A stretch of 58,342 nucleotides of DNA from a virus (IMGVR_UViG_3300020021_000012:1-58342), one strand, 5' to 3'. Shown: positions 22,938-50,272, counted from the stretch's first letter. Numbers and translations: made by a program. The notes: a model not told the origin generated them from the letters alone.

Positions 22938-23030
22938 ATGTTCATGATCGGCATCGCGATCGGCCTTGTTCTCGGTGTCCCAGCCGGCGTTGCGCTCGCG
23001 GTTTGGGCCGCGATACCCGAAACGCCATGA
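22938..23030 (+). CDS. Single-TM micropeptide (30 aa)
   Basis: MFMIGIAIGLVLGVPAGVALAVWAAIPETP; GAGG RBS; ATGA-coupled to the ligase. Confidence 0.5.
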   Translation: MFMIGIAIGLVLGVPAGVALAVWAAIPETP

Positions 23031-24118
23031 GTTCCGTCCTCGCCTTCCTCGTGCTCGCCGCCTATTGGCCCGGGATCGCAGGGCCTGCCACGACGCCACG
23101 CTGGGTCGCGCTGTTCACCTTCGTGCCGCTGCTGCTGTTCTTCGCCGATCGGGTGCGACTGACGCTCAGCCATGTCGCCGGGCTCGCCTTCATAGCCTGG
23201 TGTGCGGTGACGCTCGCATGGTCGGTGAGCCCGTTGGACGGCATCGGCGCGCTGGCCGAACTTGCCACTATCGGAGCCGTGTTCGCGCTGGGATCCCTGA
23301 GTGACGACCTGACCCCGCTCTATCGCGGTGCTGCGGTGGGGATCGGTGTATCGAGCGTCCTCGTCATCGGGCAATGGCTGCACCTGATCGACATTCCGGC
23401 GTTCTACCTGCCGGCCGCGCTGTTCGTGAACGCCAACCATATGGGCGAGGCTGCGGCGTTGATCCTGGTGGCCTGCATGTTCAACCGCATCTGGTGGGGC
23501 GTCATCGCATCTGCCCCTGCCTTGCTGCTCTCTGGCTCGCGTGCGGCGGTCCTGGCGGTTGTCATCGCCTGCCTCTATTGGCTGTGGGCGCATCGCCTGC
23601 GGGCGACCGCGGCGGTGTGCTGTGTGCTAGCCCTCTGGCTCGCCGTCGCGGCGTTCTTCATCGTCAAGCCCGACATGAACGGCCAGCACGAGCGGCTGGC
23701 GATCTGGTCGGATACGGCGCGCAATCTCACATTCACCGGGCAGGGCATCGGCTCGTATTGGGAGGCGTTCCCCGACATCGCTGTGGCGACCGACATCAGC
23801 CGTGTACGTCCCGATCATGCTCACAACGAGTTCCTCGACATTGCGTTCGAGACCGGGGCAGTGGGGTTCATGCTGTTCCTGGCATTTGTGGCCACGCTGC
23901 GCGGTCCATTCAATGTCGAGCGTGCCGTTCTGATCGCGCTCATGGTGGAGGCCTGCTTTGCTTTCCCATTTTCTAACGCATCCACCGCGTTTCTGGGAAG
24001 TGTTGCTGCGGGGGCTGCTGCTCGCTCTCGGCGTGACATTCGCAGTGAGGTTGTCGCTGGCCGAGATCGAATACGTGCGTGGCTGGCAGCCGGGAAAGCC
24101 GCTCAAACCGCAGTTTGA
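23027..24118 (+). CDS. O-antigen ligase / O-oligosaccharyltransferase family (Wzy_C) polytopic membrane protein
   Basis: About 10 TM segments; FVNANHMG, SGSRAA, ERLAIW, GQGIGSY, HAHNEFLDIAFETGAVG. Confidence 0.85.
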   Translation: MSSVLAFLVLAAYWPGIAGPATTPRWVALFTFVPLLLFFADRVRLTLSHVAGLAFIAWCAVTLAWSVSPLDGIGALAELATIGAVFALGSLSDDLTPLYRGAAVGIGVSSVLVIGQWLHLIDIPAFYLPAALFVNANHMGEAAALILVACMFNRIWWGVIASAPALLLSGSRAAVLAVVIACLYWLWAHRLRATAAVCCVLALWLAVAAFFIVKPDMNGQHERLAIWSDTARNLTFTGQGIGSYWEAFPDIAVATDISRVRPDHAHNEFLDIAFETGAVGFMLFLAFVATLRGPFNVERAVLIALMVEACFAFPFSNASTAFLGSVAAGAAARSRRDIRSEVVAGRDRIRAWLAAGKAAQTAV

Positions 24119-24215
24119 GGCATTGGCCCGCGCCGAGCAGGACTATCCGTTCAATCACCGGTTTCGCGAAGGCACGACAGTGCGGGTGAAGCTGCTGGCG
24201 GAGAGAGGCAAATAG
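24000..24215 (+). CDS. Small TM plus TPR-like protein overlapping the ligase 3' end
   Basis: LLRGLLLALGVTFAVRL hydrophobic stretch then ALARAEQDYPFN; fills the gap to the next gene; start uncertain. Confidence 0.5.
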   Translation: MLLRGLLLALGVTFAVRLSLAEIEYVRGWQPGKPLKPQFEALARAEQDYPFNHRFREGTTVRVKLLAERGK

Positions 24216-24216
24216 C

Positions 24217-24438
24217 GTGGCCAATTCCTCCCCGTCCCCCAACAACGTCCCCGTCAAATTCCGCGGCAAAGGAGAGCGTGAAATGCCCAAGCCCCCGAAC
24301 ATGGATGTATCGACCGTCGCAGGTCCGAAGGGCGGCAAGCCCAAGTTCCCGCGCGGCCTGAAGAAGAAGGCCAAGCGGCTGCAGGGCCAAGGCCGCATCT
24401 CCGACAAGGCGATGAAGAAGATCACGGGTGAGGCGTGA
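24217..24438 (+). CDS. Small Lys/Pro-rich basic protein
   Basis: 73 aa, GAGAGG RBS; C-terminal motif shared with the ATP-grasp protein. Confidence 0.7.
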   Translation: MANSSPSPNNVPVKFRGKGEREMPKPPNMDVSTVAGPKGGKPKFPRGLKKKAKRLQGQGRISDKAMKKITGEA

Positions 24439-24444
24439 GAGTAG

Positions 24445-24870
24445 ATGCCAGCCCGTTGCCGGCCAGCGCACGACAAGCACTACCATCTGCGCGAGCCATT
24501 CGGCTATCTCCTGACCCTCGATCTCTACGGCTGCAGGCCGTGCGTCTGTGACGACCTGAACCTCTGCTACGATTTCCTCGTTGATCTGGTGCGCGATCTC
24601 GGGATGACAGCGCAGGGCCCGCCGCACATTTACCGCAGCCCGCCTGAATTCCCCGACAAGGCCGGTCTGTCAGGCTGGATCGGCATGATTGAGAGCGGCA
24701 TTCAGATTCACACGCTCACGCCGAGGAGCTTCATCTCGATCGACATCTATTGCTGCCGGGACTTCACGTCGGATGGAGTGACCGAGTTCGTGCGGGACTA
24801 TTTCGGCGGTTGCCGGGAAATCGAGATGAACCGGATTCTGCGCGGCATGAAATACAACGAGGTTGTGTGA
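24445..24870 (+). CDS. Pyruvoyl-dependent S-adenosylmethionine decarboxylase family proenzyme (SpeD/SpeH-like)
   Basis: LTLDLYGC, GLSG...IES cleavage site, IHT, IDIYCC; ESG replaces the usual ESH. Confidence 0.82.
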   Translation: MPARCRPAHDKHYHLREPFGYLLTLDLYGCRPCVCDDLNLCYDFLVDLVRDLGMTAQGPPHIYRSPPEFPDKAGLSGWIGMIESGIQIHTLTPRSFISIDIYCCRDFTSDGVTEFVRDYFGGCREIEMNRILRGMKYNEVV

Positions 24871-26208
24871 ATGCCATCGCATCGCGACCGCACGGTGCTG
24901 ATCTATGATCATGGGCTCTTCGTTGAGCTTGCCGTCACGCTCTCAAAGCACTTCGGCCGCGTGTTGCTGTACGTCCCCTGGGAGAACGGATATCCGAGGA
25001 GTAACGCCCCGCGCATCGGCCAGGGCATCAAGGGCGTCGAGCGCGTGCTGTCGCCGTGGGATCATTACGACGAGATCGACCTGTGGATATTTCCCGATGT
25101 GTATGAGGGCGCGCTGCAGCAGCATCTCGTCGACATGGGCAAGCGGGTCTGGGGCTGCCGGATGGGCGAGGAGCTGGAACTCGACCGCGTCAAGTCCAAG
25201 GAGCACTGTAAGGCGATTGGCATCGACATCGGCCCTTACGCGCACATCGTCGGCCTCGATGCGTTGCGCGAGCATCTGAAAGACAACGACGATCAGTGGG
25301 TGAAGATATCCGCCACCCGTGGCGACATGGAGACCTTCCACGCCCCGAACTACGCTCAGGTCGAGCAGCAGATCGACGAGCTGGAGCACAATCTCGGCGC
25401 CAAGAAAAAGGTGATGGAGTTCATCGTCGAGGAGGGCATCGATCCCGCCATCGAGATCGGCTACGACGGCTATACCATCGACGGCCGATATCCCAAGGGA
25501 GCCATCGTCGGGGTCGAGGTCAAGGACAAGGCCTACGTCTGCAAGACCATGCGCTATTCGCAATTGCCGGAGAAGGTCCGCAGCGTCAACGACAAGCTGG
25601 CCAAGACGCTGAAGGGCTACGGCTACCGTGGCTTCATCTCGACGGAGATCAGGTGCAAGGGCGATAAGGCCTACCTGATCGACCCATGCGCGAGGTGCGG
25701 ATCGCCGCCCTCCGAACTCTATCAGGTGATGATCACCAACCTTGCCGACGTGATCTGGGAAGGTGCCGGCGGCGTCGTAGTGGAGCCTGAATTCTCCCAC
25801 GAATGGGGCGCACAGATCCTGCTGCTGTCGGATTGGGCGGACAGCAACTGGCAGCAGGTGTCGTTCCCTGAATCCATCAGAGAGAACGTCAAGCTGCGCA
25901 ACATGACGATCATTGATGGAAACTATTACGTCATTCCGCAATGGACCGGCATGCCTGAGATTGGCGCCATCGTTGCGACCGGCGACACGCAGGAAGAGGC
26001 CATCAACGAGGTCAAGCGGTTGGCCGAGATGGTGCACGGCCACGACATGAACAAGCCGGTCGAGGCGCTGGAGAAGGCGCGCGACGACCTCAATGAGGCG
26101 CTGGGCACAGCAAAGCCGAAGTCCAAGCTTCAGGTTGAGGCTGAGCGGCTGCGAAGTGAGGGGAAGATTTCGGATCGACGGTTTGACCGGATGGTGAGGG
26201 CGGAATGA
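24871..26208 (+). CDS. ATP-grasp ligase, PurD (GAR synthetase)-like
   Basis: ELELDRVKSK, WVK, FIVEEGI..IEIGYDG, GYRGFISTE, IDPCARCGSP (compare PurD EFNARFGDP). Confidence 0.75.
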   Translation: MPSHRDRTVLIYDHGLFVELAVTLSKHFGRVLLYVPWENGYPRSNAPRIGQGIKGVERVLSPWDHYDEIDLWIFPDVYEGALQQHLVDMGKRVWGCRMGEELELDRVKSKEHCKAIGIDIGPYAHIVGLDALREHLKDNDDQWVKISATRGDMETFHAPNYAQVEQQIDELEHNLGAKKKVMEFIVEEGIDPAIEIGYDGYTIDGRYPKGAIVGVEVKDKAYVCKTMRYSQLPEKVRSVNDKLAKTLKGYGYRGFISTEIRCKGDKAYLIDPCARCGSPPSELYQVMITNLADVIWEGAGGVVVEPEFSHEWGAQILLLSDWADSNWQQVSFPESIRENVKLRNMTIIDGNYYVIPQWTGMPEIGAIVATGDTQEEAINEVKRLAEMVHGHDMNKPVEALEKARDDLNEALGTAKPKSKLQVEAERLRSEGKISDRRFDRMVRAE

Positions 26209-26794: not shown

Positions 26795-26802
26795 GTAACA
26801 GC

Positions 26803-28803
26803 ATGCCCCAACCCGTCCTCGCAGCCATGGAAGCCCGGCCCCGCGGCATCTCGCCCGCGGTGTCGGGTCGCGTCCGTGATCCCGAGGATCGGCGATCGCG
26901 CAACGTCGAGGACGATGAGGACGAGAACTACCTCTCTGTCCGCGAACTGCGGAACCAGTTCGAGGATTACCTGACCTCCAAGGTCGACGAGATCGAGGAG
27001 CAGAAGGATTCGCGTCGTTATTACCATGGCTCGCAGTTAACGTCCGACCAACTCCGCGTGTTGCGTGCCCGCCATCAGCCGCCGATGACCTGGAACCGTA
27101 CCGGCCGCAAGATCAACGGCATCGTTGGGTTGGTGCAGCGGATGCGCTCGGACCCGAAGGCTGAGGCGACCAGCCCCAAGAGCGAGCAGGGTGCTGAGAT
27201 CGCCACGCAGTCGGTGCGCTCGGTGCTCTCCGCCAGCGACTGGAAGTCCTTGGAGCCGTGGTGCCTGCTGCAATGCGGCATTGATGGAATTGCCGGGGTG
27301 CAGTCGGTGCTCCAGAAGGATGCCCGCGGCGATTACAAGATCAGGCTCGAATGGGTCATTGGAGACGAGTATTTCTACGACCCGAAGTCCTACCGGCAGG
27401 ATTTCACCGACAGCCGCTACGAGGGCACATCCAAGTGGATGGACGTCGACGAGGCCATAGAGCTTTGGCCCGACGACGAGGAGAAAGAGGAGCAACTCCG
27501 CAGCCTGTTCGCCGGCGACACCGACATGACCACGAACCCGGACCGGGAAATCAAGTGGATCATCACGTCGAGCAAGCGCATCCGGTTGGTGCAGCACTGG
27601 TACAAGAAAAAGGGCAAATGGCGGTGGGCGTTCTACGTCGCCAACACCCTGATCGACCAGGGCACCTCGCCGTTCTTCGATGAGGACGGCAACAGCGCCT
27701 CGTCATTCGATATGTTCGCCGCTGCGGTGGATCATGACGGCGACCGCTACAGCTTCGTACGAAATCTGAAAGGCCCGCAGGACGCCCTGAACCAGGGCAA
27801 GTCCAAGATGCTGCATCTGGCCAATACCAAGCTGGTGCGCTCCGAGAAGGGTGCGGTCGATGATGTCGAGACGGCGCGGCGCGAGGTGGCGCGGCCGGAC
27901 GGCTGGGTCGAAACCAACCCGGGCCGGGTATTCGAGCTCGTCGACACCAAAATGGACCTCGCCGCCTTCACCCAGTTCACCGAGGATGCCAAGGCCGAGC
28001 TCGACGCCTACGCCAACAGCAATCTGGCCTCGCTCAACGGCACCGCGATCACGCAGATTTCCGGGCGGGCGATCGAACTGCTGCGGCAGCCTGGCATGGC
28101 CGAACTTGGCCCGTTTATCCTGGCTCAAAGGGCATGGAAGCTCCGGGTGTTCCGCAAGATTTGGAACGCGGTCAGCCGCTACTGGACCAAGGAGCGGTGG
28201 ATCAGGGTCAACAGCGACGATGCCAAGCTGGCCCAATGGCTGCAGGTCAATGGCCTCGGCCTCGATCAGTACGGCCTGCCGGCGATCATCAACGCGGTCG
28301 GGGCGCTCGACGTCAATATTGTGCTTGAGGAAGGCCGCGACGTCGCCTCCGTGATGGAAGACATCCAGGACCAGTTCAAGGGCTATCCGCCGGGCACCTT
28401 CCCGCCGCAGGTCTTGGTCGAGTTCTCGACCCTGCCGCGGTCGGAGAAGGACAAGTTCATGCAGATGATGGCGCCGAAGCCGCCTCAGCAGGACCCGGCA
28501 GCCGAGCTTATGAAGAAGCTCCAGCTCGAGGGCTTGGCCGGCGAGGTCGCTCACACGGCCGCGAAGACCGCCAAGGACACCGCGTCGGTCCAGCAGATTC
28601 TGGCCACCGCCGAAGAGAAGCGCGCCAAGGCCGCCACCGAGAGCATCAGGCCTGCCCACATGGCGCACGGTGCGGAGATCGATGCCGCAACCTTCGCCCG
28701 AGATACGCTCGCCCAGGCCCATCAGATCGCCACGGCGGGGCAGCAGCAGCCACAGCAAGCCTCACCGCAGAAACCGCCGGCACAGTTCCCGCTGCCGTTC
28801 TGA
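26803..28803 (+). CDS. Portal protein (P22-like)
   Basis: 666 aa; RRYYHGSQ...N, YDP.S..DF.DSRY, NKGKS-like NQGKSK, SGRAI; C-terminal coiled coil. Confidence 0.88.
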   Translation: MPQPVLAAMEARPRGISPAVSGRVRDPEDRRSRNVEDDEDENYLSVRELRNQFEDYLTSKVDEIEEQKDSRRYYHGSQLTSDQLRVLRARHQPPMTWNRTGRKINGIVGLVQRMRSDPKAEATSPKSEQGAEIATQSVRSVLSASDWKSLEPWCLLQCGIDGIAGVQSVLQKDARGDYKIRLEWVIGDEYFYDPKSYRQDFTDSRYEGTSKWMDVDEAIELWPDDEEKEEQLRSLFAGDTDMTTNPDREIKWIITSSKRIRLVQHWYKKKGKWRWAFYVANTLIDQGTSPFFDEDGNSASSFDMFAAAVDHDGDRYSFVRNLKGPQDALNQGKSKMLHLANTKLVRSEKGAVDDVETARREVARPDGWVETNPGRVFELVDTKMDLAAFTQFTEDAKAELDAYANSNLASLNGTAITQISGRAIELLRQPGMAELGPFILAQRAWKLRVFRKIWNAVSRYWTKERWIRVNSDDAKLAQWLQVNGLGLDQYGLPAIINAVGALDVNIVLEEGRDVASVMEDIQDQFKGYPPGTFPPQVLVEFSTLPRSEKDKFMQMMAPKPPQQDPAAELMKKLQLEGLAGEVAHTAAKTAKDTASVQQILATAEEKRAKAATESIRPAHMAHGAEIDAATFARDTLAQAHQIATAGQQQPQQASPQKPPAQFPLPF

Positions 28804-28815
28804 GGACATCAACCA

Positions 28816-28938
28816 ATGTGGAAGATTCTGGGGTGGATAGCCCTCGGAATAGCGATTGGCTTTGCGATCGACGATGCGGCGCTTCACGTCGCTGGAACGT
28901 CATTCACTCAGCTTGCCGCGCAGATGAAGGGGTCATGA
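28816..28938 (+). CDS. Single-TM micropeptide (40 aa)
   Basis: MWKILGWIALGIAIGFAIDD...; GAGGA RBS; ATGA-coupled. Confidence 0.55.
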   Translation: MWKILGWIALGIAIGFAIDDAALHVAGTSFTQLAAQMKGS

Positions 28939-29420
28939 CCATGAGCAGATTCCCTGAATCGAACTACGACCGCAAGCGGCGGATGACGACGCGGTTTGCG
29001 CTGGCGGTATGCGGCGCAGCGCTGCTGGGGTTCATCGCCATTGCGGTGGCAAGCTCGGGAGCGAAGGCGCAGTCGATACCGTCAAAATATCTAAGCACGG
29101 CATCGACCAATTCGACATTGGTAAAGGTGTCAGAAGCACACCTGTCGATCATCGTCGCAGTCAATACCACGACGACGGTCTATTACCTCAAGTTCTACAA
29201 CAAGGCCGTTGCGCCGACATGCAACACGGACCCCGTCCTGTTTATGGTTCCGATCCCGTTTGGCGCGAGCAATGCGGGCGGTGGCGCGGTCATCCCGATC
29301 GCCGATCCGGGCGGCTTGTATTTTCAGCAAGGTCTCGGCTTCTGCATCACCAGCGGCAGCGCCGATAGCGACAACGGAAATGCGGCGACCGGCGTGACCG
29401 TGAGCCTGGGCGTCAAATGA
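28935..29420 (+). CDS. Signal-peptide-bearing beta-rich virion-type protein
   Basis: Basic n-region, hydrophobic h-region, AKA|Q; 2 mature Cys. Confidence 0.75.
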   Translation: MTMSRFPESNYDRKRRMTTRFALAVCGAALLGFIAIAVASSGAKAQSIPSKYLSTASTNSTLVKVSEAHLSIIVAVNTTTTVYYLKFYNKAVAPTCNTDPVLFMVPIPFGASNAGGGAVIPIADPGGLYFQQGLGFCITSGSADSDNGNAATGVTVSLGVK

Positions 29421-29614
29421 TCCGGGTCGTCATCGTAGCGCTGGCGATGTGCGCGATGTTCGCACTGAGCGCCAGCGCACAGTTGCCGATGATGGGCTAC
29501 GGGCCGGGGAACTTTGCGGGCTCAGGCGGGGGCGGTAGCGCCTGTGCTGCCGGACAGCTCGATTTCTCCGATCCCACAGGATGCAACCTCACGCTCTACA
29601 TGGTGGGATTATGA
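29417..29614 (+). CDS. Small secreted protein
   Basis: MIRVVIVALAMCAMFALSASA|Q; 2 mature Cys. Confidence 0.7.
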   Translation: MIRVVIVALAMCAMFALSASAQLPMMGYGPGNFAGSGGGGSACAAGQLDFSDPTGCNLTLYMVGL

Positions 29615-29871
29615 GATTCAAATTCTGGTGGAGCATCTTCGTCTGCCTATCGGCAGTGCCGGCACAGGCCGCCGAGCGGGCCCTGATGTTCGACGACAAC
29701 GACGTCAAGGTGCTGACGCAGATCCTCGACGCTGCGACCCGCTCGGGTGGCATCCAGATCGCCCCGGCGACGGTCTACATCCTGGACAAGCTCAACAAGG
29801 CGCCGGTCGTGACCGAACGCAAGGACGCTGATCCCGCTGCCGCCGAGAAGCCGAAGGAGCCCGGGCAATGA
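29611..29871 (+). CDS. Small secreted protein
   Basis: MRFKFWWSIFVCLSAVPAQA|A; ATGA-coupled on both sides. Confidence 0.7.
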   Translation: MRFKFWWSIFVCLSAVPAQAAERALMFDDNDVKVLTQILDAATRSGGIQIAPATVYILDKLNKAPVVTERKDADPAAAEKPKEPGQ

Positions 29872-30815
29872 AGATGCTTCGATCCGTTGCAGTCGGGCTT
29901 GCGCTCTCCTGGTTGATGTCGGGCTGGGCCTTTGCCGGCACCAGCACGATCACCACCAAGGATGCATCCGGAACGACTAAGACGTTCGATGTCATCACCG
30001 ATGGCTCCGGCAACTTCGGGGCGATGATCGGAGTCTGTGACGGGACGGCGCTGGCGCAATGTGCGGCGGTCAAGGCCGCGAGCACGGCGGCGGTAGCGAC
30101 TGATCCATCATTGGTGGTCAGGATTAATCCCGGCGATGCGGTAGCGACCGGTATCGCCACGATCGCCACCAACAGCGCGGCGCCGAGCCCGTGCCTCGCG
30201 GCGACTGCCTTCAACACCAACTCCTACTCCAATGCGGCAACCGCCCCGTCGAATTGCGACCTGAACGGCGGCTTCTACGTCCATCCGCCAGCGAACCAAA
30301 CCGTCAACGTGACGCAGGTCGGCGGCGCGACGCTAGCTCTCGGCCAGACGACGATGTCGGCCGGAATTCCGGTGGCTTTAGCCAGCAACCAATCCTCAAT
30401 TCCGGTCGCGGCGACGCTGAGCGCGGAGACGACGAAGGTCATCGGGACGGTCAACGAATCGAGCCAATATCCCGCCGGTGCAACGGCGATCACGGCCTCG
30501 GCGACCGGAACCACGGGCGCGACGACCGCGACACTCGCGGGAACATCGGGAAAAACGACGTACATCTGCAGCTATTCGATCCGCGCCAATGCGACAGCTG
30601 CGACGACGGTCACCAACACCGTCACTGGAGTGATCACGGCAACCTTGAGCCATATCATGTGGGTGGCTCCTGCTGCCTCTGGCGTCGGCCTCGATGAGCA
30701 GATTTTTTCGCCCTGCGTTCCAGCCAGCGCAACCAATACCGGAATCGCGGTCGTATCCGGCGCCCCTGGAACGGGCGGAAATGTGAGCTCTACTGCGACG
30801 GGCTACCAACTGTGA
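29868..30815 (+). CDS. Secreted Thr/Ala/Ser-rich fibre-like protein
   Basis: MKMLRSVAVGLALSWLMSGWAFA|G; 6 Cys in three near pairs. Confidence 0.8.
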   Translation: MKMLRSVAVGLALSWLMSGWAFAGTSTITTKDASGTTKTFDVITDGSGNFGAMIGVCDGTALAQCAAVKAASTAAVATDPSLVVRINPGDAVATGIATIATNSAAPSPCLAATAFNTNSYSNAATAPSNCDLNGGFYVHPPANQTVNVTQVGGATLALGQTTMSAGIPVALASNQSSIPVAATLSAETTKVIGTVNESSQYPAGATAITASATGTTGATTATLAGTSGKTTYICSYSIRANATAATTVTNTVTGVITATLSHIMWVAPAASGVGLDEQIFSPCVPASATNTGIAVVSGAPGTGGNVSSTATGYQL

Positions 30816-31729
30816 GACCCTTCGCCCGCTGGCTCTTTGCTCTAGCCGCGATACTCTGCGTCTTCTCGACAGGGGCGAAGCCGTATTGGCAATCGCGGCT
30901 GCAGGTCAGTATCGCCAGTTCGGTTGGATGTTCTCAGGCAACCACATTTCTGGCTCGCACATCTGGGTTGGATGCTACTCATCAAAGTGCCTATACAACG
31001 TTCATTTGCAACTTGGTTGCCCAGGGCGTCTGGGCGAAGATGGATATCGTTTATGTCTTCGCGACTGCGGACACAACAACTGCTGGGCTTAATCTCGTTT
31101 CCACGTCATTCACCGGCGCGACTGCAGGCTCCCCGACATTTACTGCCGATGCGGGATATACTGGAGTAAACGCCTCCACAACGGTTTTTTTCAATAGCAC
31201 ATTTAACCCAACGACAGCGACGACTCCGCAATTCACTCAGAATTCATCTCACGTTTCAGCGTGGAGCAATACAAACGCAGCGGCGGTTTCAAACGGCGGC
31301 GTGGTAGTCGGACTTGGATCAGGCGCAGGACTTGCTGCACCTAATACCAGCCTATTCCCAAAATTCAACGACGGGAAGGCATATTATCGTATTAACGACG
31401 GCTCAAGCTCCGCCGGTGTGACAAATGCAAATTCGACTGGCCATTATTTGGCCAACAGATCGGGCGCCTCTACGCAGCAGGGGTACAAAAATGCCGTAGA
31501 TCAAGGCGTTGTGTCTCAGACATCAGGCACCCCGGCCAATGGGCCCATGTATATTTTAGCTGTTGATGATGTCATAACTGGAGTCCCAAACCCCGCGTTT
31601 GGTGCCGGGTATCAGGTCATGATGGCAACAATTGGCGGTAGCTTGTCTGCCGGAGACGTTACAAATCTGTGTCATGAGACAAATACCTATTTGAACACAA
31701 TAGGTGGCATATCTTCTGGGATATGCTAG
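30812..31729 (+). CDS. Secreted protein, putative lectin/beta-sandwich virion accessory
   Basis: N-terminal signal peptide; GVWAKMDIVYVFA motif; 4 mature Cys; visibly more AT-rich. Confidence 0.7.
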   Translation: MRPFARWLFALAAILCVFSTGAKPYWQSRLQVSIASSVGCSQATTFLARTSGLDATHQSAYTTFICNLVAQGVWAKMDIVYVFATADTTTAGLNLVSTSFTGATAGSPTFTADAGYTGVNASTTVFFNSTFNPTTATTPQFTQNSSHVSAWSNTNAAAVSNGGVVVGLGSGAGLAAPNTSLFPKFNDGKAYYRINDGSSSAGVTNANSTGHYLANRSGASTQQGYKNAVDQGVVSQTSGTPANGPMYILAVDDVITGVPNPAFGAGYQVMMATIGGSLSAGDVTNLCHETNTYLNTIGGISSGIC

Positions 31730-34700
31730 ATGTCTCTATGTCGTAGAGAGTTTTTAGCGTCCGTAGCTGCAATCACGCTCATTGGTTCGACAGCGGCACT
31801 TGCGCGCTTCCCGCACGGCGATCCAAACACATCTCCGCCGACAGTGCCGTTCTTCGTCGAAGTGACGATGACGGCACCGGACATAATTCGGCTGGAGATA
31901 CGCGATCCGATCATCCAGCGCGGGCTCTTCCAGCAGCTCGGGACGCCTGACGCCGCTGCCGCTGGCAGTTGGACGACACGGACACACCCCATCACGGGGG
32001 CAAGCACAGCGTGCTTCATCGGTGGTTTTAACCAGAACTTCGCACGCTTCACCGACGTGCTGTTTCCGAACTACTACAATCGTGCTGCTGGTGATGTCGC
32101 CGCCGACTGGTCGATTACGGGCGGCCTCACAGTCACGAATGTCTACCGGTTCTCGTGGCCCTACTGTGAGGGCATCGTTAATACTGGCGGCCAAACGACC
32201 GCGAACCAGACGACATTCCGGCATTACATCTGGCTCAAGGTTAGTTCTGCCCTGGTCTCTGGAACGAACTACGTCATCACGCCGCCGGCCGGCGTGTCGC
32301 TTGTACCCATCTCGTTCCCATTCAACGATAAGGTCACTCGGGCGTCGAGCATCGTTGCGAACCAGGTCGGCATCTCGCAAACCGATGACCTCAAGCTCGC
32401 ATACCTGACAGAGTTTATCCCAGGTCTCGGCCCCGTCAATTTTGCATCGACCTACGGCATCAGCAGCTTCAACATCCTCGATAGCGCTGGGAATGTCGCC
32501 TACAACACTGGGACCTTCGCGCAGCGGGTAACGCCTTCGACGACCGAGACCAGCGGCGGCGCGATCCGCTACTACATAGACACGACTGTTGCGCCGAAGA
32601 AGTTCGACCAGATCACGAATGCAAGCCCAGGAGTCATAAGGTCTATTGCTCACGGGTATTCCGGCGGAGAGATTATCTTCATTGTCGGCGCTGGCATCTC
32701 CGGGGGAGGGATAGTCAGCAACCCATCGCTTTGCGATACTCCGCTGACGGTCGTTCTCGTCGATGCCGATCACTTTTCTCTGACGGGGACGATTGCAACA
32801 AATAGTCCTGTCGGCAGCGCGATCAATACGCCGTCGATGACAACCTATGTTCCGGGAACGTTCATCGCGACTGGAAACTCATTCAATTCGGGCTATGACA
32901 GCCTGATCTACTCTGCCTATCCCTCCAACCGCGCCGGAACCTACGTCTACGGCCTCGACGCGAGCACTGCTACTGGACTAGCGGACGGCAGCTACTGCTA
33001 CCAAATTCCAGGGCTTGGCATCTCTGACTATTTCCCCGTGAACGCCAACGCATGGCTATCGGCCGCGACGACATGGGCGCAGGGCTATTACCATCAAACG
33101 TCCGGGATCGCGATTGACGGTCGGTTTGGCTATGCTCGTGGTCCAGCTCAAGTTGACGGCTTCGACGGGACGCAGCTTTTCCTTAGTCTATTGCCGATGG
33201 GTTTCACGTCTGAAGACGGCGGCTACAATGGCGGGAATGCCCTGGATCAGGGGCTATCTGGACTTGCTCCCTTCCTAACGGCAACGCGCGGTCCTGCTGG
33301 TTTGTTTGGCACCTTCCATGATGCCGGTGACTGGTGCTCGGTTCTTTACTACCACGCCGACGCGCCATGGGGTCTGCTCGATAGTGGCTACGAGTACATC
33401 CCGACAGCCGGCCATGCCACCAATTTCAATTTTCCGAAGATGTCGCAGACGTGGGGCCAGACCTACGCAGGGACCGACAGCCTGTCCGATGTCATTCACA
33501 TGGCGGTCTACTTCGCCGAGTTCTACCGGCTCGCCCAGAACGCATTCGGTGCGGTGCCCTCTGGAACGTCATTTGGGCAGTCCGGTTTCGGCGATGGCGG
33601 CGCGACTGAAACCGCGCCAAGCCCGGCGAACTATAAGGTGTGGGTGCTGAACGCCCCGGATCATCCGTCGACATATCTCTTTGCTGTCGTTGCCGCGAAG
33701 CTCGCGGTTGTGTTTTGGAATTTGGGGTTCACGACGCTCGGTAATCTGTGGGCGACCTCAGCCGAGAGTGCGTGGACCTGGGCGGAAGGTGTCTACACCG
33801 GCCTTCAGTCCGATACAAATTTCTACTACAACACGACCACTTATAACGGCGTCGCGCTTGGTCTTCAGGCCAACGCCAGTTGGTCTGGGGCGCAGTATTT
33901 GACGGCGCTCGGGACTTTCAGTGCCGGCACACCTTTGTCCTCAACTGGCATGATGAAATTTGGTGCGCAGCAGAGGTTCAATGCTGCGGGTGCATTGTTC
34001 CGAATGGCTGGCGTCGTTGGCCGTTCACAAGTAGCTTATGATGCGGTGGTGCATGCGTTCGGCGTTACCGGACTCCAGAACTCTTCCTGCACGCTTGGTA
34101 CTTGGGAGTACAGCCACGGTGCAGGATTCGACGCTGCGCTCTATGCCAGTGCGAACGGTAACAATATTTTCATCAACCCCATGAACACCGCCTCGACGGC
34201 GTCAGAGGCTACGAATGCCTACCGCACCTACAATGGCGGCATCGGTACGGGCGTTAATATCGATCAGGCGATTCACGGATACGTTCTCAGCAGCGCAAGC
34301 CCGACGAACCAAGCGCGTCTGCGCCGTCAGCTTCAGGGGCAACTGAGCGTCACGCTCGGCGCCAATCCGACCGGGCTCTGCTACTCCAGCAACTCAGGGA
34401 AACGCAGCACGCTCGGTATCCTGCATCGCGACTGGCAAGGGATGGGAAGCGGGTGCCCGCAGCCGACCGGATATACCGGCTATACCTGGGCTGGGACTAC
34501 ATATGCATTCGGCGTCTTCAACTTCAGTTCGGACTCGCCGCAAAACTTCACGGTGGAAAACCCGACCGGACTGTTTTCATCGACATTTGGCGTCAACCGC
34601 ATCGTCTACCCGCACAAATGCGCTGTTCCGATGTGGCGAGCGGTCCCGGAGGTCAGCTACTGCGTTCAGTTCATGGAGGGCACGACATGGCAGACGATCG

Positions 34701-40967: not shown

Positions 40968-41417
40968 GTGGCTCTCCAGCCGTTGCCCGACAGAAAGCTG
41001 CCGGTCGGTTTCGCCAACAGCGCCCCGCAGAACTACTACGCCGACTACTGGCAATCGCTCGACGCCAACACGAGGGCCTTGCTGGCAAGCGTCGGCGGCC
41101 TTCCGTCATCGAGCCAGTTGCTCGGCATCAATCCGCAGACCGCAAGCTATGTGCTGGTGCTCGGGGATGCCGGCTTCACGATCGAGATGAACGTGGCCGG
41201 CGCGAATACGTTGACGTTCCCGCCCGGTGTTTTCCCAGTCAAGACCTTCATCAACTTCGTTCAGGTCGGCGCCGGCCAGACGACGCTGACCCCGGGACTT
41301 GGCGTCACGCTGCATGGTGTCGGCGGGGCGCTGAAAACCGCAGGGCAGTGGGCGATGGGCACGGCCTACCAGCGCGCGACGGACGAGTGGGTGGCAGGAG
41401 GCCGGTTGACCGTATGA
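40968..41417 (+). CDS. Tail needle/fibre-like protein
   Basis: QTASYVLVLGDAG...Q.GAGQ.T...W...G.L beta-domain pattern. Confidence 0.6.
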   Translation: MALQPLPDRKLPVGFANSAPQNYYADYWQSLDANTRALLASVGGLPSSSQLLGINPQTASYVLVLGDAGFTIEMNVAGANTLTFPPGVFPVKTFINFVQVGAGQTTLTPGLGVTLHGVGGALKTAGQWAMGTAYQRATDEWVAGGRLTV

Positions 41418-42034
41418 CGTTCCTGCCGGGGTTTCTGGGCAGCCCGAAGGCCTCGGTCTCGAAGACTGACAGCGGCGTCACCAACGGTGCGACGTATCAG
41501 TTTGGCCCCGCAGCGGCCGGGCGCGTCATCGCCGCCGCCATCTCGGTAGCCGCAGCCGGCGGCAACAGCATAACCGGAGTTTTGCTCGGCGGAACAGCGG
41601 CGGTGCTAATCGCCCGCGTGACATTCACTGCCGGGGACACGGCGGAAATCTGGGCGGCGGTCGTGCCGGCAGGCAGCAGCGGCGCGGTTGCCGCGACGGT
41701 ATCCGGAGCGCTCTCGGCGTTCGGCGTCACGGTCTATGCGATCCTAAACCCCAATGGTGTGGCGGCGTCAAATACTGCGGTCTCGGCAACGAGTTCGGTA
41801 AATCTCAGTGTCCCGCAGGATGGCGTCGCCATCGCGGTATCAACCAACGTGCGTGCCGGCGGATCGAGCTTCACCTGGTCGGGGCTCGCGGAAGACACCG
41901 ATTTCGCCATTGCTACGTCGGCGCAATCGTCGGCCGCCTCGGGAAGCGTTTCGGCCGCTCAGAACGTGACTGTCACAGCGACGCCATCGGCATCGACTGC
42001 GCAAGGCATCGTCGCCGCGTCTTGGTCTCCATAG
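41414..42034 (+). CDS. Ala/Ser/Thr-rich beta-sandwich tail-associated protein
   Basis: Start re-called at MTFLPG, ATGA-coupled. Confidence 0.7.
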   Translation: MTFLPGFLGSPKASVSKTDSGVTNGATYQFGPAAAGRVIAAAISVAAAGGNSITGVLLGGTAAVLIARVTFTAGDTAEIWAAVVPAGSSGAVAATVSGALSAFGVTVYAILNPNGVAASNTAVSATSSVNLSVPQDGVAIAVSTNVRAGGSSFTWSGLAEDTDFAIATSAQSSAASGSVSAAQNVTVTATPSASTAQGIVAASWSP

Positions 42035-42046: not shown

Positions 42047-42925
42047 ATCGGAATCTTCGACAATATTACCGGCTTCTTCGATGGATCGACCGCTCAAACG
42101 GCGGCGAACCAGCAGGTTTCAGGCTTGCAGCAGGGCTACAATCAGGCCTCCGGTCTTCTCGACCAGGGCCGCGGCGCCCTCACGACCAATTTCACCAACG
42201 CGCTGCAGCCGCTCCAGCAGAACTACAATCAGGCTCAGGGCGGCGTCACGGCCTATGGTAATGCGATGGGGCTGAATGGCCCGGCTGGTAATGCTGCTGC
42301 GACGGCGGCTTTCCAGAACAATCCCGGCTATCAGTACCAACTCCAGCAGGGCACCGAGAACGAACTGCGCAATCAGTCGCGTACTGGCGCGGTGAACTCC
42401 GGGCAGACGCAGGTTGATCTCCAGAACATCGGCCAGGGCGTAGCCAATCAGGGCTACAACCAGTATATCCAGAACCTGCAGCCGTTCCTCGGTCAGGCCA
42501 GCACCGCTGCCTCGGGCATCGCGGGTGTCGATACCGGCCTCGGTACGGGGCTCGCGAACAGCTACGGCAACCAAGCTGGCCTCGCACAGACCACACAAAC
42601 CGGCATCGGCAACGCGAACGCTAATGCGACGTTGGCGCAGAACTCGGGCGTGGCTAACCTGCTCAATCTCGGCATGAACGGAGCGAAGTTGGCGACCATG
42701 TCGGATCGCCGATTGAAGGAGGATATCTCGCCGATCGGCGAGACCTTCGACGGGCAGAACATCTACAGCTATCGCTATAAGGGTGACGATGTTCCCCGCA
42801 TCGGCCTCATGGCGCAGGAGGTCGAAGAGCGCTATCCCGACGCCGTGTTTGAGATCGGGGGCTTCAAGGCCGTCGACTACGGCAAGGCAACCCGCTTCGC
42901 GTCCCGGCTGTCGGAGTTCGTCTAA
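42047..42925 (+). CDS. Ejection (DNA transfer) protein with C-terminal S74-like chaperone domain; probable ATC start
   Basis: Q/N/G-rich, NNPGYQYQ, SDRRLKEDI...GLMAQEV...VDY; GGAGGG RBS 7 nt before an in-frame ATC. Confidence 0.75.
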   Translation: MGIFDNITGFFDGSTAQTAANQQVSGLQQGYNQASGLLDQGRGALTTNFTNALQPLQQNYNQAQGGVTAYGNAMGLNGPAGNAAATAAFQNNPGYQYQLQQGTENELRNQSRTGAVNSGQTQVDLQNIGQGVANQGYNQYIQNLQPFLGQASTAASGIAGVDTGLGTGLANSYGNQAGLAQTTQTGIGNANANATLAQNSGVANLLNLGMNGAKLATMSDRRLKEDISPIGETFDGQNIYSYRYKGDDVPRIGLMAQEVEERYPDAVFEIGGFKAVDYGKATRFASRLSEFV

Positions 42926-46954: not shown

Positions 46955-47914
46955 ATGGCCGGTCTTTTTCCATTCATAGCGAACTCCCAGAATTTCGACC
47001 GGAACGGCCAGCCGTTGGCCAATTCCGTGCTGTCGGTATTCCAGGGTGGTACGCTGACCCTGGCAAACTGCTTCCAGGATATCGGCCTGGCGCTGTCGGC
47101 ACCGAACCCGATGACGGCGGACCAGACTGCGAGGCTCCCCGTTTTCTATGTCGCCGACGGAATCTATTCCGTCCGTCTCGTCGATCAGTTCGGCGTCGAA
47201 ATCTACTTCTATCCGCAGGTGCCATCGATCGGTGCCTCGACCTCGGGCGGTGGCGGATCGGCGGTCGATCCTACGACGATCGCCCAGACCGGCGATCCGA
47301 TCTGGCTGCCGATCGACAACACTCGTACCGGCTGGGTGCGGATGAACGGCCGCACCATCGGTTCCCCCACATCGGGGGCGACCGAGCGCGCCAACAACGA
47401 TGCGCAGAACCTGTTTCTCTATAACTGGAACAACTTCACCGATGCGCTTTGTCCGGTTATCTCGGGGCGTGGCGTGTCGGCTGCGGCGGATTGGGCCGCA
47501 AACAAGCAGATCACCATGCTCGACATGCGCGGGCGTGGGCCCTACGGCCTCGATACCATGGGCAACACCGCGGCGGGTGTCCTGACGCTTGCGAATCTTG
47601 GCGTTGACCCCACGGTGGCGTCGCTGGCGATCGGCGAGGAAAAACATCTGCTCGCCACGCCAGAACTTCCTACCATCACGCCGGCCGGCACGAACAGCGC
47701 GCCGGTTGTCACCGCCAAGCGGCGAAACCGGAATGATGCCGCCCTCGGTTCGGGTCCTACAGAATTTATCACAGAGAATCAGACGGATGGAAACTCCGTC
47801 GACAATGCCGTGACCGCGAGCGCGCCAACCTTCACAGGCACGCCGTTCGGCGGTGGCGGCACGCACAACAACACCCCGCCCGGACGCGTCGGGACATGGT
47901 TCCAAAAGTTGTAA
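46955..47914 (+). CDS. Tail fibre protein with head-binding-like N-terminus and tail-collar domain
   Basis: FD.NGQPL...L...GT, GW..MNG.TIG, LDMRGR, GEEKHLL...ELP. Confidence 0.75.
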   Translation: MAGLFPFIANSQNFDRNGQPLANSVLSVFQGGTLTLANCFQDIGLALSAPNPMTADQTARLPVFYVADGIYSVRLVDQFGVEIYFYPQVPSIGASTSGGGGSAVDPTTIAQTGDPIWLPIDNTRTGWVRMNGRTIGSPTSGATERANNDAQNLFLYNWNNFTDALCPVISGRGVSAAADWAANKQITMLDMRGRGPYGLDTMGNTAAGVLTLANLGVDPTVASLAIGEEKHLLATPELPTITPAGTNSAPVVTAKRRNRNDAALGSGPTEFITENQTDGNSVDNAVTASAPTFTGTPFGGGGTHNNTPPGRVGTWFQKL

Positions 47915-47918
47915 AATT

Positions 47919-48350
47919 ATGGACCTCAACCCGACATTATTTCCAGCTATTTCGAACAGAGAAACCTGGCAACAGGTCATCCTCCTGTCCGATGGCGACA
48001 CCGGAGACGCGATTGAGTTGACCGACGCCGCTAATGGCTCAGGCAATCCTCTCTACGGCGTCAATCTGGAGATCGCCCCGGCACGCGAACCCCGCGGGGG
48101 AATGGGGATCGGCATCAGCCCGTTCTATGACGACTGGGATTCGCCGGTCATCACGGGGTCGTTGTCCAACTACATCACCATCATCGGTGCCGGCGTGATC
48201 CAGATCGTAATTCCAAAATCGATCATGCAGTCGTTGCGGGCTACGCAGACCTACGACGTGTTCCTCACCCTCACGACCAACGGCGAGGATGATGGCCGGC
48301 AACTGCTGATCGGGCGGTTGCCTGTGTTCTACGGCGGGCGGAGCACCTAG
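47919..48350 (+). CDS. Tail-associated hypothetical protein
   Basis: Start re-called at MDLNPT. Confidence 0.65.
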   Translation: MDLNPTLFPAISNRETWQQVILLSDGDTGDAIELTDAANGSGNPLYGVNLEIAPAREPRGGMGIGISPFYDDWDSPVITGSLSNYITIIGAGVIQIVIPKSIMQSLRATQTYDVFLTLTTNGEDDGRQLLIGRLPVFYGGRST

Positions 48351-48353
48351 GAT

Positions 48354-48911
48354 ATGACGCTTCCCGTAAGCATCCGAATCAACGTGATGGTCCTGTTCCC
48401 GGCGCGGGTGCAGGGATCAGGCTTCCTGACGGTCACGAAGGCCAACGGGATATTCACTCTCGGCATCGACTACTCTCTGCTCGGAACTCCGATCCCACTG
48501 AACGATCCCGCAAATACGGTGGTCGCCGTCTTCAACCTCATCACCAAAGCGTACAATCTCACGACTTTGGCAACGCTGATTGCATCGGCGGTTGGCGGCT
48601 ATCGCATGGTTACCGCGGCTGGAGATATCGCGGCGTCTGCGACCGATACCACGATACTTGTCAACAAAACTGTCGGCGCGGCGACCAACATCGTAGTGCC
48701 GACATCGGCATCGCGGCAAGGCCTGCCGCTGCGCGTCAAGGACTACAAGCGCGATGCCGGCACCAACAACATTACGTTCGTGATGTCCGCAGGCGAGACA
48801 ATGGACGGGCTGTCGCAGGCTGCGGCCGATGCGGCAGGTCTCACCAAGATCGATATGAACGGCGACGACAAGACTTGGTCGCCGTTGACCTCTGGGGGCT
48901 GGTTCACATGA
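48354..48911 (+). CDS. Tail-associated beta-rich protein
   Basis: VKD..DAG.NNIT....GET.DG fibre-type motif. Confidence 0.65.
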   Translation: MTLPVSIRINVMVLFPARVQGSGFLTVTKANGIFTLGIDYSLLGTPIPLNDPANTVVAVFNLITKAYNLTTLATLIASAVGGYRMVTAAGDIAASATDTTILVNKTVGAATNIVVPTSASRQGLPLRVKDYKRDAGTNNITFVMSAGETMDGLSQAAADAAGLTKIDMNGDDKTWSPLTSGGWFT

Positions 48912-50272
48912 TTCTTCGTCGGACGATTGCGTTTGCTATCGCGTTGCTGCTGGCGCCATGCGCCTCGCTGGCGCAATCAACAATTCCATCCGGCCATCTG
49001 CTCGGCAACTCGACCGCGGCGGAACGCACGCCGACTGATACGACCTTGTCAGCGCTGTTCGATCGCGCGTTCGCATGCACGCAAGGACAGATCGTCAATC
49101 GCGGCGCTTCTCTGAATTCCTGCACTGCGGCCCCGATTTTGGGGCTTTCCGGAACGCTAGGATCGCTGAGTTTCGGCAATGCGACGTCCGGTCTGGTGAA
49201 GATTCAGCCGGTTACCGGCGTGCTTGGGTCATCGGTCCTGAGCCTTCCTGCGGCGACCGACACGCTGACGGGCAAGGCCACTACCGACATCTTCACCAAC
49301 AAGACCTATGACACTGCCGGCACCGGCAACTCTTTCAAGATAAACGGCCAGTCGATCACCTCAGTCAGCGGCACCGGTACGCAGGTTGCCATTGTCGGCG
49401 CGCTGACGAATAGCACCGTGCCGCGCTGGCTGGCCGGCGTTCTGTCCAACGGCGCCATCTCGGATGACGGCACCAATATCGCCGTTGCTGGTGCGGCGTC
49501 TGCTACCGCATTTTCGTCTGGCACAAACGGCGTGATTGGCGGAAGCCTGACGCTCAACGGCTCGGCAACGGGCAGCTCTCTCGTTAAGGTGGCCGCTGCC
49601 GCCGGCTCCTCAACCTTTCAGCTTCCCGTAGGGAATGGGTCAAGCGGTCAACTGCTCTCGACCAATGGCTCTGGTGTGACGAGTTGGATCACGGCATCCG
49701 GCACCGGCACTGTCACGAGCGTCGTCTGCGGCAGCGTCACCATCACCAGCACAGGAACCTGCGACAACGGCGTGTTGCTCGATACCGTGACGGCCAGCAG
49801 TTCGGCAAGCATCACTGGGGCGGTCACATTCTCCGGCACCTATAACCGCTATCAGCTCGTATTCTCCGGCATCCTGCCGGCCACCAACGCGGTCGGCTGC
49901 CGGCTGCGCATCAACAGCGGCGGAATTCAGACTACGGGATATCTGGCCGCCATTGTGTTTTCGACCGCCGCAGCCACGCCCGTTGCCAGCGCCCCGACAA
50001 CGTTCATAAATTGTTCGCGCTCCGACACGGCCGATGTTCCGAATACCGGACAGGGCATCTCTGGACAAGTCTGGATTGATGCTCCGTCGGGCACGACGGC
50101 GCCCAAGAACATCGACGTGAAGTTCGTCTATCCGTCGTCGGCAAACTCGATCACGCAGCTATCGGGAGGCGGCTTCTGGAACGGCGGCAACGGTGCCGTG
50201 ACCAATTGGCAGGTCGATTTCACCTCCGGCAATATCGCGAGTGGGACCGTCAGGGTTTACGGCTGGAAGTGA
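48908..50272 (+). CDS. Tail-fibre-like protein carrying a signal peptide
   Basis: MILRRTIAFAIALLLAPCASLA|Q; LP...DTL.G..T.D.FTNKT, LP..NGSSGQLL.TNGSG..SW, GNIASGTVRVYG; 6 mature Cys. Confidence 0.78.
   Translation: MILRRTIAFAIALLLAPCASLAQSTIPSGHLLGNSTAAERTPTDTTLSALFDRAFACTQGQIVNRGASLNSCTAAPILGLSGTLGSLSFGNATSGLVKIQPVTGVLGSSVLSLPAATDTLTGKATTDIFTNKTYDTAGTGNSFKINGQSITSVSGTGTQVAIVGALTNSTVPRWLAGVLSNGAISDDGTNIAVAGAASATAFSSGTNGVIGGSLTLNGSATGSSLVKVAAAAGSSTFQLPVGNGSSGQLLSTNGSGVTSWITASGTGTVTSVVCGSVTITSTGTCDNGVLLDTVTASSSASITGAVTFSGTYNRYQLVFSGILPATNAVGCRLRINSGGIQTTGYLAAIVFSTAAATPVASAPTTFINCSRSDTADVPNTGQGISGQVWIDAPSGTTAPKNIDVKFVYPSSANSITQLSGGGFWNGGNGAVTNWQVDFTSGNIASGTVRVYGWK

Follow-up and report, generated by a model that had tools for sequence, protein, structure and literature searches.

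In the textbook account, the assembly of tailed phages is wholly cytoplasmic. Cement proteins and tailspikes belong to the parts that are added on; completed particles accept P22 tailspikes and decoration proteins in vitro. Virion proteins with signal peptides are known from filamentous phage (Ff), whose pIII and pVIII mature outside the cytoplasm and whose pIII needs disulfides. Here we analyze the late operon of a complete, temperate, podovirus-like phage from soil (IMGVR_UViG_3300020021_000012; the whole stretch of 58,342 bp is referred to as the window), in which a homologue of capsid cement proteins (positions 37427–37951) and a tail-fibre-like protein (48908–50272) begin with predicted export signals, as does the tailspike (46955–47914 here) in sister phages. 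A preliminary description of the window had combined eight signal-bearing genes, six of them in the block 28935–34747, with a Wzy_C-family membrane enzyme (23027–24118) into one system that routes virion proteins through the periplasm, where they would be oxidised and perhaps O-glycosylated, before joining the particle at or after lysis. We consider a two-compartment finish of the virion, to which we assign a probability of roughly 50%, separately from the question of glycosylation.

The Ff phages assemble at the membrane and are extruded without lysis, whereas the phage analyzed here is a tailed double-stranded DNA phage with terminase, portal, scaffold and an amidase-type endolysin. Its cement homologue has the same jelly-roll fold as the cement proteins of Pam1, KHP30/KHP40 and GP4 (PDB 7eel, 7dn2, 7dou and 8h89; Z 7.9–9.8), lies likewise directly 3′ of a major capsid protein (MCP) of the same type, and has a mature part of about 140 amino acids (aa). 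The Pam1 and GP4 proteins, however, have no signal peptide, whereas the protein here combines a Sec-type signal with co-occurring cysteine pairs, and no sequence similarity is detectable to the Pam1, KHP and GP4 proteins. Compared with solved podovirus tailspikes, whose head-binding domain (PDB 7eeq, 9vyg and 9vyh) gives an N-terminal profile match to the tailspike family of this phage type at E-values of 8e-10 to 3.7e-7, 31 of 72 relatives have a cleavable-looking signal, and a cysteine pair in that domain is present in 17 of the 30 full-length signal-bearing proteins. Morons such as Lom and Bor of lambda, Llp of T5, and Cor are, like the block 28935–34747, exported, placed among virion genes and variably present, but they are not homologues of virion parts and as a rule have their own promoter and terminator, whereas here a scan for the sigma-70 consensus gave promoter-like and terminator-like sites at about the expected numbers. 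A full-text literature search, outside of which most subscription journals lay, did not turn up any tailed phage whose cement, decoration or tailspike proteins are described as having signal peptides. The sequence features described below are variants of known parts (cement, tailspike and fibre); the assembly route that they imply would be new in kind if confirmed.

Predicted export signals on homologues of outer virion parts

In the translations, all eight N-termini named in the preliminary description (Sec-type in the genes starting at 28935, 29417, 29611, 29868, 30812, 37427 and 48908, and of the twin-arginine translocation (Tat) type in that starting at 31730) combine a basic n-region with a hydrophobic core that lacks charges, followed by a small-x-small site. 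Signals were called with a custom, crude heuristic that requires a basic n-region, 8–18 uncharged residues with a mean hydropathy of at least 1.7, and a small-x-small site within about 45 residues. At a score of 25 or more, 6 of the 32 coding sequences (CDS) of the late operon were flagged, namely 28935, 29417, 30812, 31730, 37427 and 48908, while 29611 (23.3) and 29868 (23.2) fell slightly below the bar, although by eye both have textbook signals. The same scan flagged 4 of 60 CDS in Pam1, with none among its first 18 (structural) CDS, and none of 17 in the terminase-to-cement stretch of Ralstonia phage GP4. The Tat-type assignment of 31730 was borne out by RREFL at residues 5–9, followed by an h-region and an Ala-x-Ala site, and a twin-arginine N-terminus is present in six of seven fetched homologues. 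Across the ten complete genomes compared (this phage and nine relatives, G001–G009), none of 87 core gene calls was signal-like; these calls cover portal, scaffold, MCP, hub, S74 fibre, ejection-type, head-completion, terminase and ATP-grasp genes and two small open reading frames (ORFs) after the tailspike, and were taken by a greedy ORF picker that missed some genes. The signal carriers are the cement protein, the tailspike, the gene or genes after g185, and the cargo genes of the block; of 12 genomes, at least 10 have a signal on the gene that comes first after g185. Separately, a ninth signal-like ORF (54686–55444, 252 aa, last residue Trp) has no Pfam family and 10 relatives, and may be an outer-membrane barrel.

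The protein encoded at 37427–37951 has a Sec-type signal at about residues 1–29 and two mature cysteines. Among 75 related viral loci fetched with the MCP as query (MCPs 53–81% identical), 64 have a homologue, always just 3′ of the MCP, and in 56 of these 64 loci (47 of 55 distinct proteins) it carries a signal ending in a small-x-small site. The eight signal-less homologues begin within one or two residues of the predicted cleavage site. An AlphaFold2 model built from 45 family members, with a predicted local distance difference test score (pLDDT) of 83, shows a β-sandwich after an N-terminal helix, and its best fold matches are four cement chains: Pam1 (VIA Z 9.8, 118 residues aligned at a root-mean-square deviation of 3.1, Foldseek E 2.2e-6), Helicobacter phage KHP30 (VIA Z 9.7), Ralstonia phage GP4 (VIA Z 9.6, 137 of 155 aligned) and Helicobacter phage KHP40 (VIA Z 7.9). 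These four stand out from generic jelly rolls: the next, unrelated match has Z 7.3, and further ones are at 6.2 or below. The gene order of Pam1, with portal, scaffold, MCP, cement and adaptor, is the same as here, the cement gene lying 3′ of the MCP and 5′ of the adaptor. By model and position, the protein thus qualifies as the predicted equivalent of the capsid cement proteins of Pam1 (gp6 type), KHP30 and GP4, and the model agrees with the decoration fold suspected in the preliminary description. A tblastn search with the cement protein against 50,697 phage records gave no match.

On the MCP tree, which is rooted at its midpoint only, the signal-less cement proteins belong to a distant outgroup and to a single nested clade (support 94/88), whose sister is a signal-bearing phage (support 99/98), and the tree therefore requires two changes of signal state. 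If the distant signal-less row is the outgroup, this is most simply read as a signal that the cement protein gained once, kept for long and lost once. The mature domains of the cement protein and the tailspike are equally similar to signal-less relatives (47–50% identity) and to signal-bearing ones, and the cement signal appears to be a separable module. An internal start that would yield a cytoplasmic cement form was considered and rejected, because the residue after the cleavage site is mostly a leucine encoded by CTC or CTG, with TTG in just two sequences, which makes a hidden start unlikely.

The tailspike of this phage itself has neither a signal nor the cysteine pair of the head domain. 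It matches the tail protein family phrog_8763 (E 1.4e-34), and the family profile matches PDB entries 9vyg ('Tail spike protein', E 8e-10) and 7eeq_A ('Tailspike head-binding domain', E 3.7e-7) over the stretch that directly follows the signal in those relatives that have one. Nine of 11 fetched relatives (G001–G007, G011 and G012) are signal-bearing, and in the alignment the signal is a hydrophobic insertion of 20–29 residues right behind the initiator Met. Most signal-less tailspikes start with Met-Ala-Gly-Thr, and in most signal-bearing ones the predicted cleavage falls right before Ala-Gly-Thr or Ala-Gly-Ser, so that both routes would give a nearly identical mature N-terminus. An alignment-based scan of viral contigs found 142 relatives, of which the best 80 loci were kept; after one was dropped owing to an N-terminus cut by the contig end, 72 distinct proteins remained from 79 loci, of which 31 carry a signal and 41 do not, and each genome has a single tailspike copy. 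Single-protein locus scans with the tailspike and with the Tat protein as query returned no matches.

The protein at 48908–50272 is laid out as a signal, a conserved N-terminal segment, a fibre module and a C-terminal β-sandwich, with six mature cysteines, an arrangement expected of fibres in which the anchor is constant and the tip varies. A signal-like N-terminus is present in 65 of 119 homologues, and the signal-less ones have N-termini that we take to be typical of tail fibres. The homologues have in common the fibre module, which is up to 75% identical and makes up about 20% of the protein, and the short conserved segment after the signal recurs in this phage, G001 and G009. Precomputed Pfam matches exist for 5 of the 120 homologues listed and fall into three families, one of them T4 gp9/10-like. 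The monomer model has a mean pLDDT of 66.6 with a poor shaft, residues 290–454 exceeding pLDDT 80; this part bears a weak Foldseek likeness to galectin/ConA-type sandwiches (best E 1.3e-3), so that none of the fold matches of the model reached E ≤0.001.

Cysteine pairing in signal-bearing and signal-less forms

Working signals imply folding in an oxidising compartment, and paired cysteines are therefore expected in the mature parts. The mature counts given in the preliminary description for the seven Sec proteins (2, 2, 0, 6, 4, 2 and 6) proved correct, one cysteine lying inside five of the signals having been subtracted; the Tat protein has 10. Among 44 distinct full-length signal-bearing cement proteins of the clade, 0, 2, 3 and 4 cysteines occur in 4, 22, 3 and 15, and exactly one cysteine in none, while the eight signal-less ones have 0, 1 and 2 in 3, 3 and 2. 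A wider cement family was drawn from a profile search of 1.84 billion proteins (1172 matches at E ≤0.001), and the best 150 of these matches, minus 12 outside 125–260 aa, gave 138 representatives. Fifty-two of them are signal-bearing, with an even, nonzero count in 40, an odd count in 4 and none in 8; the corresponding numbers for the 86 signal-less ones are 9, 32 and 45 (Fisher p 4e-11 for even-nonzero versus odd). In the 45-row cement alignment, six pairs of cysteine columns always co-occur (13/13, 10/10, 9/9, 9/9, 4/4 and 2/2).

The other two families point the same way. The 30 full-length signal-bearing tailspikes have 0, 2, 4 and 6 cysteines in 4, 13, 8 and 5 proteins and an odd count in none, as compared with 0, 1, 2 and 3 in 9, 18, 7 and 6 of the 40 full-length signal-less ones (Fisher p 3.6e-10, even-nonzero versus odd). 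The cysteine pair of the head domain, complete in the 17 signal-bearing proteins mentioned above, is complete in 0 of 40 signal-less ones, and a lone cysteine of this pair is found in signal-less tailspikes only (5 of 40). The homologues of the fibre-like protein show an even count in 64 of 65 signal-bearing members, at 1.19 cysteines per 100 aa, versus 27 of 54 signal-less members (13 of them with zero), at 0.28 per 100 aa (Fisher p 9e-14, even-nonzero versus odd). The strength of this case lies in the same direction being seen in three unrelated protein families, together with the co-occurring columns, rather than in the p-values. It lends real support to the view that the signals act as functional export signals coupled to disulfide-type cysteines; export and oxidation of the signal-bearing proteins appear well supported by their sequences, and it is very probable that these are genuine export signals on disulfide-forming proteins.

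The hydrophobic N-termini might instead have arisen through misannotation, tether the proteins to the membrane, or be pro-peptides that are cut off in the cytoplasm during assembly, and the fact that the calls come from a custom scan and that the start codons were chosen by us gives such a reading some room. We nevertheless regard it as highly improbable, considering that the coupling to even cysteine numbers recurs in four independent data sets, that the small-x-small sites coincide with the start of the signal-less forms, and that in a public protein set the gene caller likewise chose the start that includes the signal of 48908 (P0018).

A two-compartment finish of the virion as a possible route

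The most economical reading of signals and cysteines is maturation in the periplasm, with the parts joining the virion at or after lysis. Heads and tails would be built in the cytoplasm from signal-less core proteins, while some of the last-added peripheral parts would carry cleavable Sec signals, leave the cytoplasm and acquire their disulfide bonds by oxidation in the periplasm. Contact with the particles would come only with the opening of the inner membrane by the holin, or with lysis. The parts concerned would be the cement protein and the fibre-like protein 48908–50272 in this phage, and in sister phages the tailspike as well. Export in vivo, cleavage, disulfide formation and attachment after the breach are steps that we infer, and the encounter of periplasmic parts with cytoplasmic particles through the holin breach is conjectural. 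The periplasmic routing put forward in the preliminary description is thus retained as far as functional signals with paired cysteines on homologues of cement, tailspike (in relatives) and fibre-like proteins are concerned; its glycosylation part is not.

We put the chance that the signal-bearing cement protein and tailspike still end up on particles slightly above even. A place on the virion is favoured by the occurrence of both genes as single, syntenic copies, by the conservation of the mature domains and by the retained attachment domain; a phage that diverted its sole copy would be without that part. The competing explanation is exaptation, in which the signal-bearing copies act off the virion, in the envelope of an infected cell or a lysogen, where they might serve superinfection exclusion, receptor masking or a surface structure, and a role as true virion parts is left to the signal-less relatives. 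Genes for exported phage proteins are known to occur among structural genes (Lom, Bor, Cor and Llp), the cargo slots of this phage type are variable, and Ena spore-appendage subunits, which form disulfide-linked pili, are among the weaker fold matches of the cement protein (Z 5.5–6.1). Cor-type lipoproteins are mentioned in PMC4936722. An exapted cement protein or tailspike, however, would leave the phage without that part, as both are single-copy and syntenic; their mature domains are as close to signal-less as to signal-bearing relatives, the tailspike retains its virion-attachment domain, and the sigma-70 consensus scan showed no excess of promoter-like or terminator-like sites. We therefore consider exaptation unlikely.

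Several observations weigh against the two-compartment finish. All signal calls come from the custom scan rather than from SignalP, and the Fisher tests ignore relatedness. In a quick tailspike tree the signal state changes about 10 times, and of four independent contrasts on well-supported branches about three go in the expected direction and none in the opposite one, with a median p of 0.25, so that the test is underpowered. Among the signal-bearing forms, 4 of the 44 cement proteins and likewise 4 of the 30 tailspikes lack cysteines altogether, which means that disulfides cannot be the sole reason for export. GP4 is reported to carry 540 cement copies per capsid (PMC9698820), which would amount to a heavy export load. 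The block 28935–34747 is absent from relatives and hence not needed for particle building. A diderm host envelope is assumed from the Tat and Sec signals alone, the presence of signal-bearing forms on virions is something we infer, and there were no RNA reads among the runs matched, only two runs of one soil sample containing more than half of the sequence words.

If the two-compartment finish is correct, completion of the virion would be tied to holin triggering, and disulfide-stabilised outer parts in phages of Gram-negative hosts would be explained. The phage would then depend on the Sec, signal peptidase and Dsb functions of its host, and annotation pipelines that count a signal peptide against a structural role would need to change. 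The route may be widespread in tailed phages of diderm hosts, with cement proteins, tailspikes and side fibres being secreted by Sec, folded by Dsb and added at the holin breach, and with particles becoming stable and infectious only at lysis; we advance this generalisation tentatively, at a little under even odds. In the samples taken, signals are present in 52 of 138 cement representatives, 31 of 72 tailspikes and 65 of 119 fibre relatives, and the natural occurrence of one and the same protein with and without a signal opens the idea to direct tests.

The cargo slot, the Wzy_C gene and other features of the genome

The six ORFs at 28935–34747 occupy the interval between portal and scaffold (Table 1). 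In 40 loci holding both flanking genes, the gap between their tblastn matches ranges from 163 to 7844 bp. The slot is empty (less than 300 bp from the portal stop codon) in 8 of these 40, and in the other 32 loci, 38 of 89 slot ORFs of at least 50 aa are signal-like. Presence or absence among syntenic relatives, a trait of morons, was found for 28935–34747 and not for the cement gene. No homologues of the products of 29417, 29611, 30812 and 31730 were found among the 75 related loci. The domain of 28935 stands alone in the same slot in 4 of the 75 loci and also forms the C-terminus of signal-bearing proteins of 579 and 863 aa elsewhere in G008 and G001; its candidacy as a cement paralogue was dropped for want of support (hhalign probability 0.3). 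Of 29868, the C-terminal third is found again in eight loci, likewise between portal and scaffold, and the nearest Atlas clusters are 100% viral and without a Pfam family, which is a lead only. The 30812 protein matches phrog_26223 (E 4.1e-15), the inner part of 775-aa phage proteins, and has a 35%-identical signal-bearing homologue elsewhere in G008, near the start of the record. One protein of the distal tail slot has a module in common with one of the portal–scaffold slot, and these recurring domains indicate that the two slots share at least some modules. Ser plus Thr make up 25.6% of 29868, 26.4% of 48908, 22.9% of 30812, 20.6% of 37427 and 19.1% of 28935, in agreement with the Ser/Thr richness noted for several exported proteins in the preliminary description, and less of 29417 (10.6%) and 29611 (8.0%). 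In the clade that lost the cement signal (L109–L112 of G011 and G012), the portal–scaffold slot holds very large Cys-rich ORFs of up to 1594 aa with 9–21 cysteines, some of them with signals.

The GC content falls to 0.574–0.578 at 30–34 kb, compared with about 0.62 around it. The cargo genes overlap or abut, with stops and starts interlocked within the late operon, and the block contains 3 promoter-like and 6 terminator-like sites versus 3.1 and 7.0 expected (sigma-70 consensus only). The NusG/KOW-like protein encoded directly upstream of the late operon is a candidate for a processive antiterminator, a role that would agree with the apparent lack of internal promoters and terminators.

The profile of the 31730 family suggests a distant member of glycoside hydrolase family 9 (GH9): GH9 endoglucanases in the PDB are matched at E 7.5e-10 to 4e-4, and of the 10 chains with E ≤1, the nine at E ≤4e-4 are titled glucanases, cellulases or cellobiohydrolases and the tenth is titled otherwise. 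Precomputed Pfam matches to Glyco_hydro_9 and CelD_N exist for two homologues, while the protein alone gave no Pfam match and, in a phmmer search of the PDB, no credible match (best E 0.7). Residues D531, A532, G533 and D534 are invariant in eight sequences of the family, and D-A-G-D is the conserved catalytic-base motif of GH9. The homologues lie on contigs of up to 184 kb outside this phage and are absent from the related phage loci. A Tat-signal GH9-like protein would fit the class of prophage-encoded carbohydrate-active enzymes, although in contrast to these enzymes in general its gene lies between portal and scaffold, translationally packed with five other exported proteins. One survey gives SignalP signals for 5% of prophage carbohydrate-active enzymes (3261 of 64,678; PMC13507307). 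We read the block as exchangeable, late-expressed exported cargo, probably composed of proteins of modular build that resemble fibres or adhesins, together with a GH9-like glycanase exported by Tat.

The Wzy_C assignment of 23027–24118 was upheld (Pfam E 5.8e-14; 52.6 bits against a cut-off of 31.7). As in the Wzy_C superfamily, which includes WaaL ligase, Wzy polymerase and PglL/PilO, the domain is part of a polytopic membrane protein, but the gene lies in the late virion operon rather than beside the integrase. Homologues with 34–40% identity are found in G001–G004, in G001 and G004 at the same terminase–portal position of the late operon, and none in G005–G009 or in five partial relatives. 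The preliminary description took the enzyme for a PglL-type O-oligosaccharyltransferase that glycosylates the exported virion proteins, and its late-operon position, kept in two relatives, as well as the 20–26% Ser plus Thr of several exported proteins, agrees with this. Yet Wzy_C occurs in 5 of the 10 complete genomes, whereas signal-bearing cement occurs in all 10, and the expected co-occurrence of ligase and signals did not appear for the tailspike either, which has a signal in 4 of 5 genomes with Wzy_C and in 3 of 5 without. No NCBIfam match (apart from one sub-threshold chance hit) and no PDB sequence match at E up to 10 assign a subtype, Ser/Thr richness, the sole point found in support of O-glycosylation by a phage enzyme, is usual in fibres, and O-antigen modification by temperate phages is a known alternative. 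We accordingly judge a phage-encoded glycosylation system quite improbable. The union of all eight genes with Wzy_C also came apart, as six of the eight lie in the hypervariable slot that is empty in 8 of 40 loci, one of these six is the Tat-type glycoside hydrolase whose family also occurs outside this phage, and Wzy_C is present in half of the genomes. The Wzy_C protein is an optional accessory without a shown link to the other exported parts, and the host may supply a glycosylation enzyme of its own.

The record is a virus of 100% CheckV completeness in which no tRNA genes were found. A megablast search for a close cultured relative found none, while several of the related proviruses come from records of isolate genomes, for instance L038, L041 and L043. 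Identity to Pseudanabaena phages Pam1, Pam5 and Pan3 and a few others does not exceed 30% for the portal and 34% for the MCP, and the portal matches include portals of Pseudanabaena (Pam), Helicobacter and Ralstonia phages. In a sample of 401 bacterial genomes from one phylum, two distant copies of this MCP type were found (L194 and L196; E 3e-62 and 3e-55), both in one genome (G060).

Table 1. Positions of predicted features in the window and the basis of their assignment
Feature	Position	Strand	Remarks
Integrase	5202–6194		
S24/helix-turn-helix (HTH) repressor	11374–12000		
Cro-like HTH protein	12051–12272		
NusG/KOW-like protein	19045–19599		Directly upstream of late operon
Large terminase	20964–22436	+	Late operon
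Wzy_C membrane protein	23027–24118	+	Pfam Wzy_C
S-adenosylmethionine (SAM) decarboxylase	24445–24870	+	Late operon
Viral ATP-grasp protein	24871–26208	+	Late operon
Portal protein	26803–28803	+	Left edge of cargo slot; Pfam P22_portal E 2.3e-74
Six-ORF block	28935–34747	+	Between portal and scaffold
Cargo gene 1	28935–29420	+	Signal and 120-aa domain; 2 mature Cys
Cargo gene 2	29417–29614	+	65-aa signal-bearing peptide; 2 mature Cys
Cargo gene 3	29611–29871	+	86 aa, signal-bearing; 0 mature Cys
Cargo gene 4	29868–30815	+	315 aa, Ser/Thr-rich, signal-bearing; 6 Cys
Cargo gene 5	30812–31729	+	305 aa, signal-bearing; 4 mature Cys
Cargo gene 6	31730–34747	+	1005 aa, Tat signal; putative distant GH9-family glycoside hydrolase
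Scaffolding protein (by position)	34968–36074	+	Right edge of cargo slot; directly 5′ of MCP in 63/75 loci; Pam1 gene order
MCP	36176–37342	+	Pfam Phage_capsid_3 E 4.6e-34; phrog_334 E 3.6e-65
Capsid cement-protein homologue	37427–37951	+	Directly 3′ of MCP
Head-completion genes	After 37427–37951	+	Late operon
gp10-like hub	39522–40967	+	481 aa; phrog_578
S74-chaperone fibre	42125–42925	+	Late operon
Two large ejection-type proteins	Between S74 fibre and tail protein	+	Late operon
Tailspike/tail-fibre protein	46955–47914	+	Head-binding domain profile match; phrog_8763
Two small ORFs	Between 46955–47914 and 48908–50272	+	Late operon
Signal-bearing tail-fibre-like protein	48908–50272	+	Signal and fibre module
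Amidase endolysin	50362–51558	+	Late operon

Some further features of the genome are worth recording. The hub gene stops at a TAG (40965–40967) and is directly followed by a GTG-initiated ORF of 149 aa that extends to 41417 and matches just the C-terminal parts of PHROG virion proteins; relatives have a single ORF of 568–792 aa, and 39522–41417 may represent a split gene, a read-through or an assembly error. A plausible Ala/Ser/Thr-rich gene of about 200 aa (41433–42034) lies inside the 3′ part of the long ORF 40838–42034, where a simple ORF list shows an apparent gap. At 24445–26208, a pyruvoyl-type SAM decarboxylase (Pfam E 6.4e-14) adjoins the ATP-grasp protein (Atlas score 0.99, 'biotin carboxylase family'), whose gene is kept between terminase and portal in at least 26 related loci; the pair possibly serves DNA or polyamine modification. 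The early region encodes two N6/N4 DNA methylases (14167–15042 and 18304–19044), and an HNH endonuclease is encoded at 52704–53564, close to the right end.

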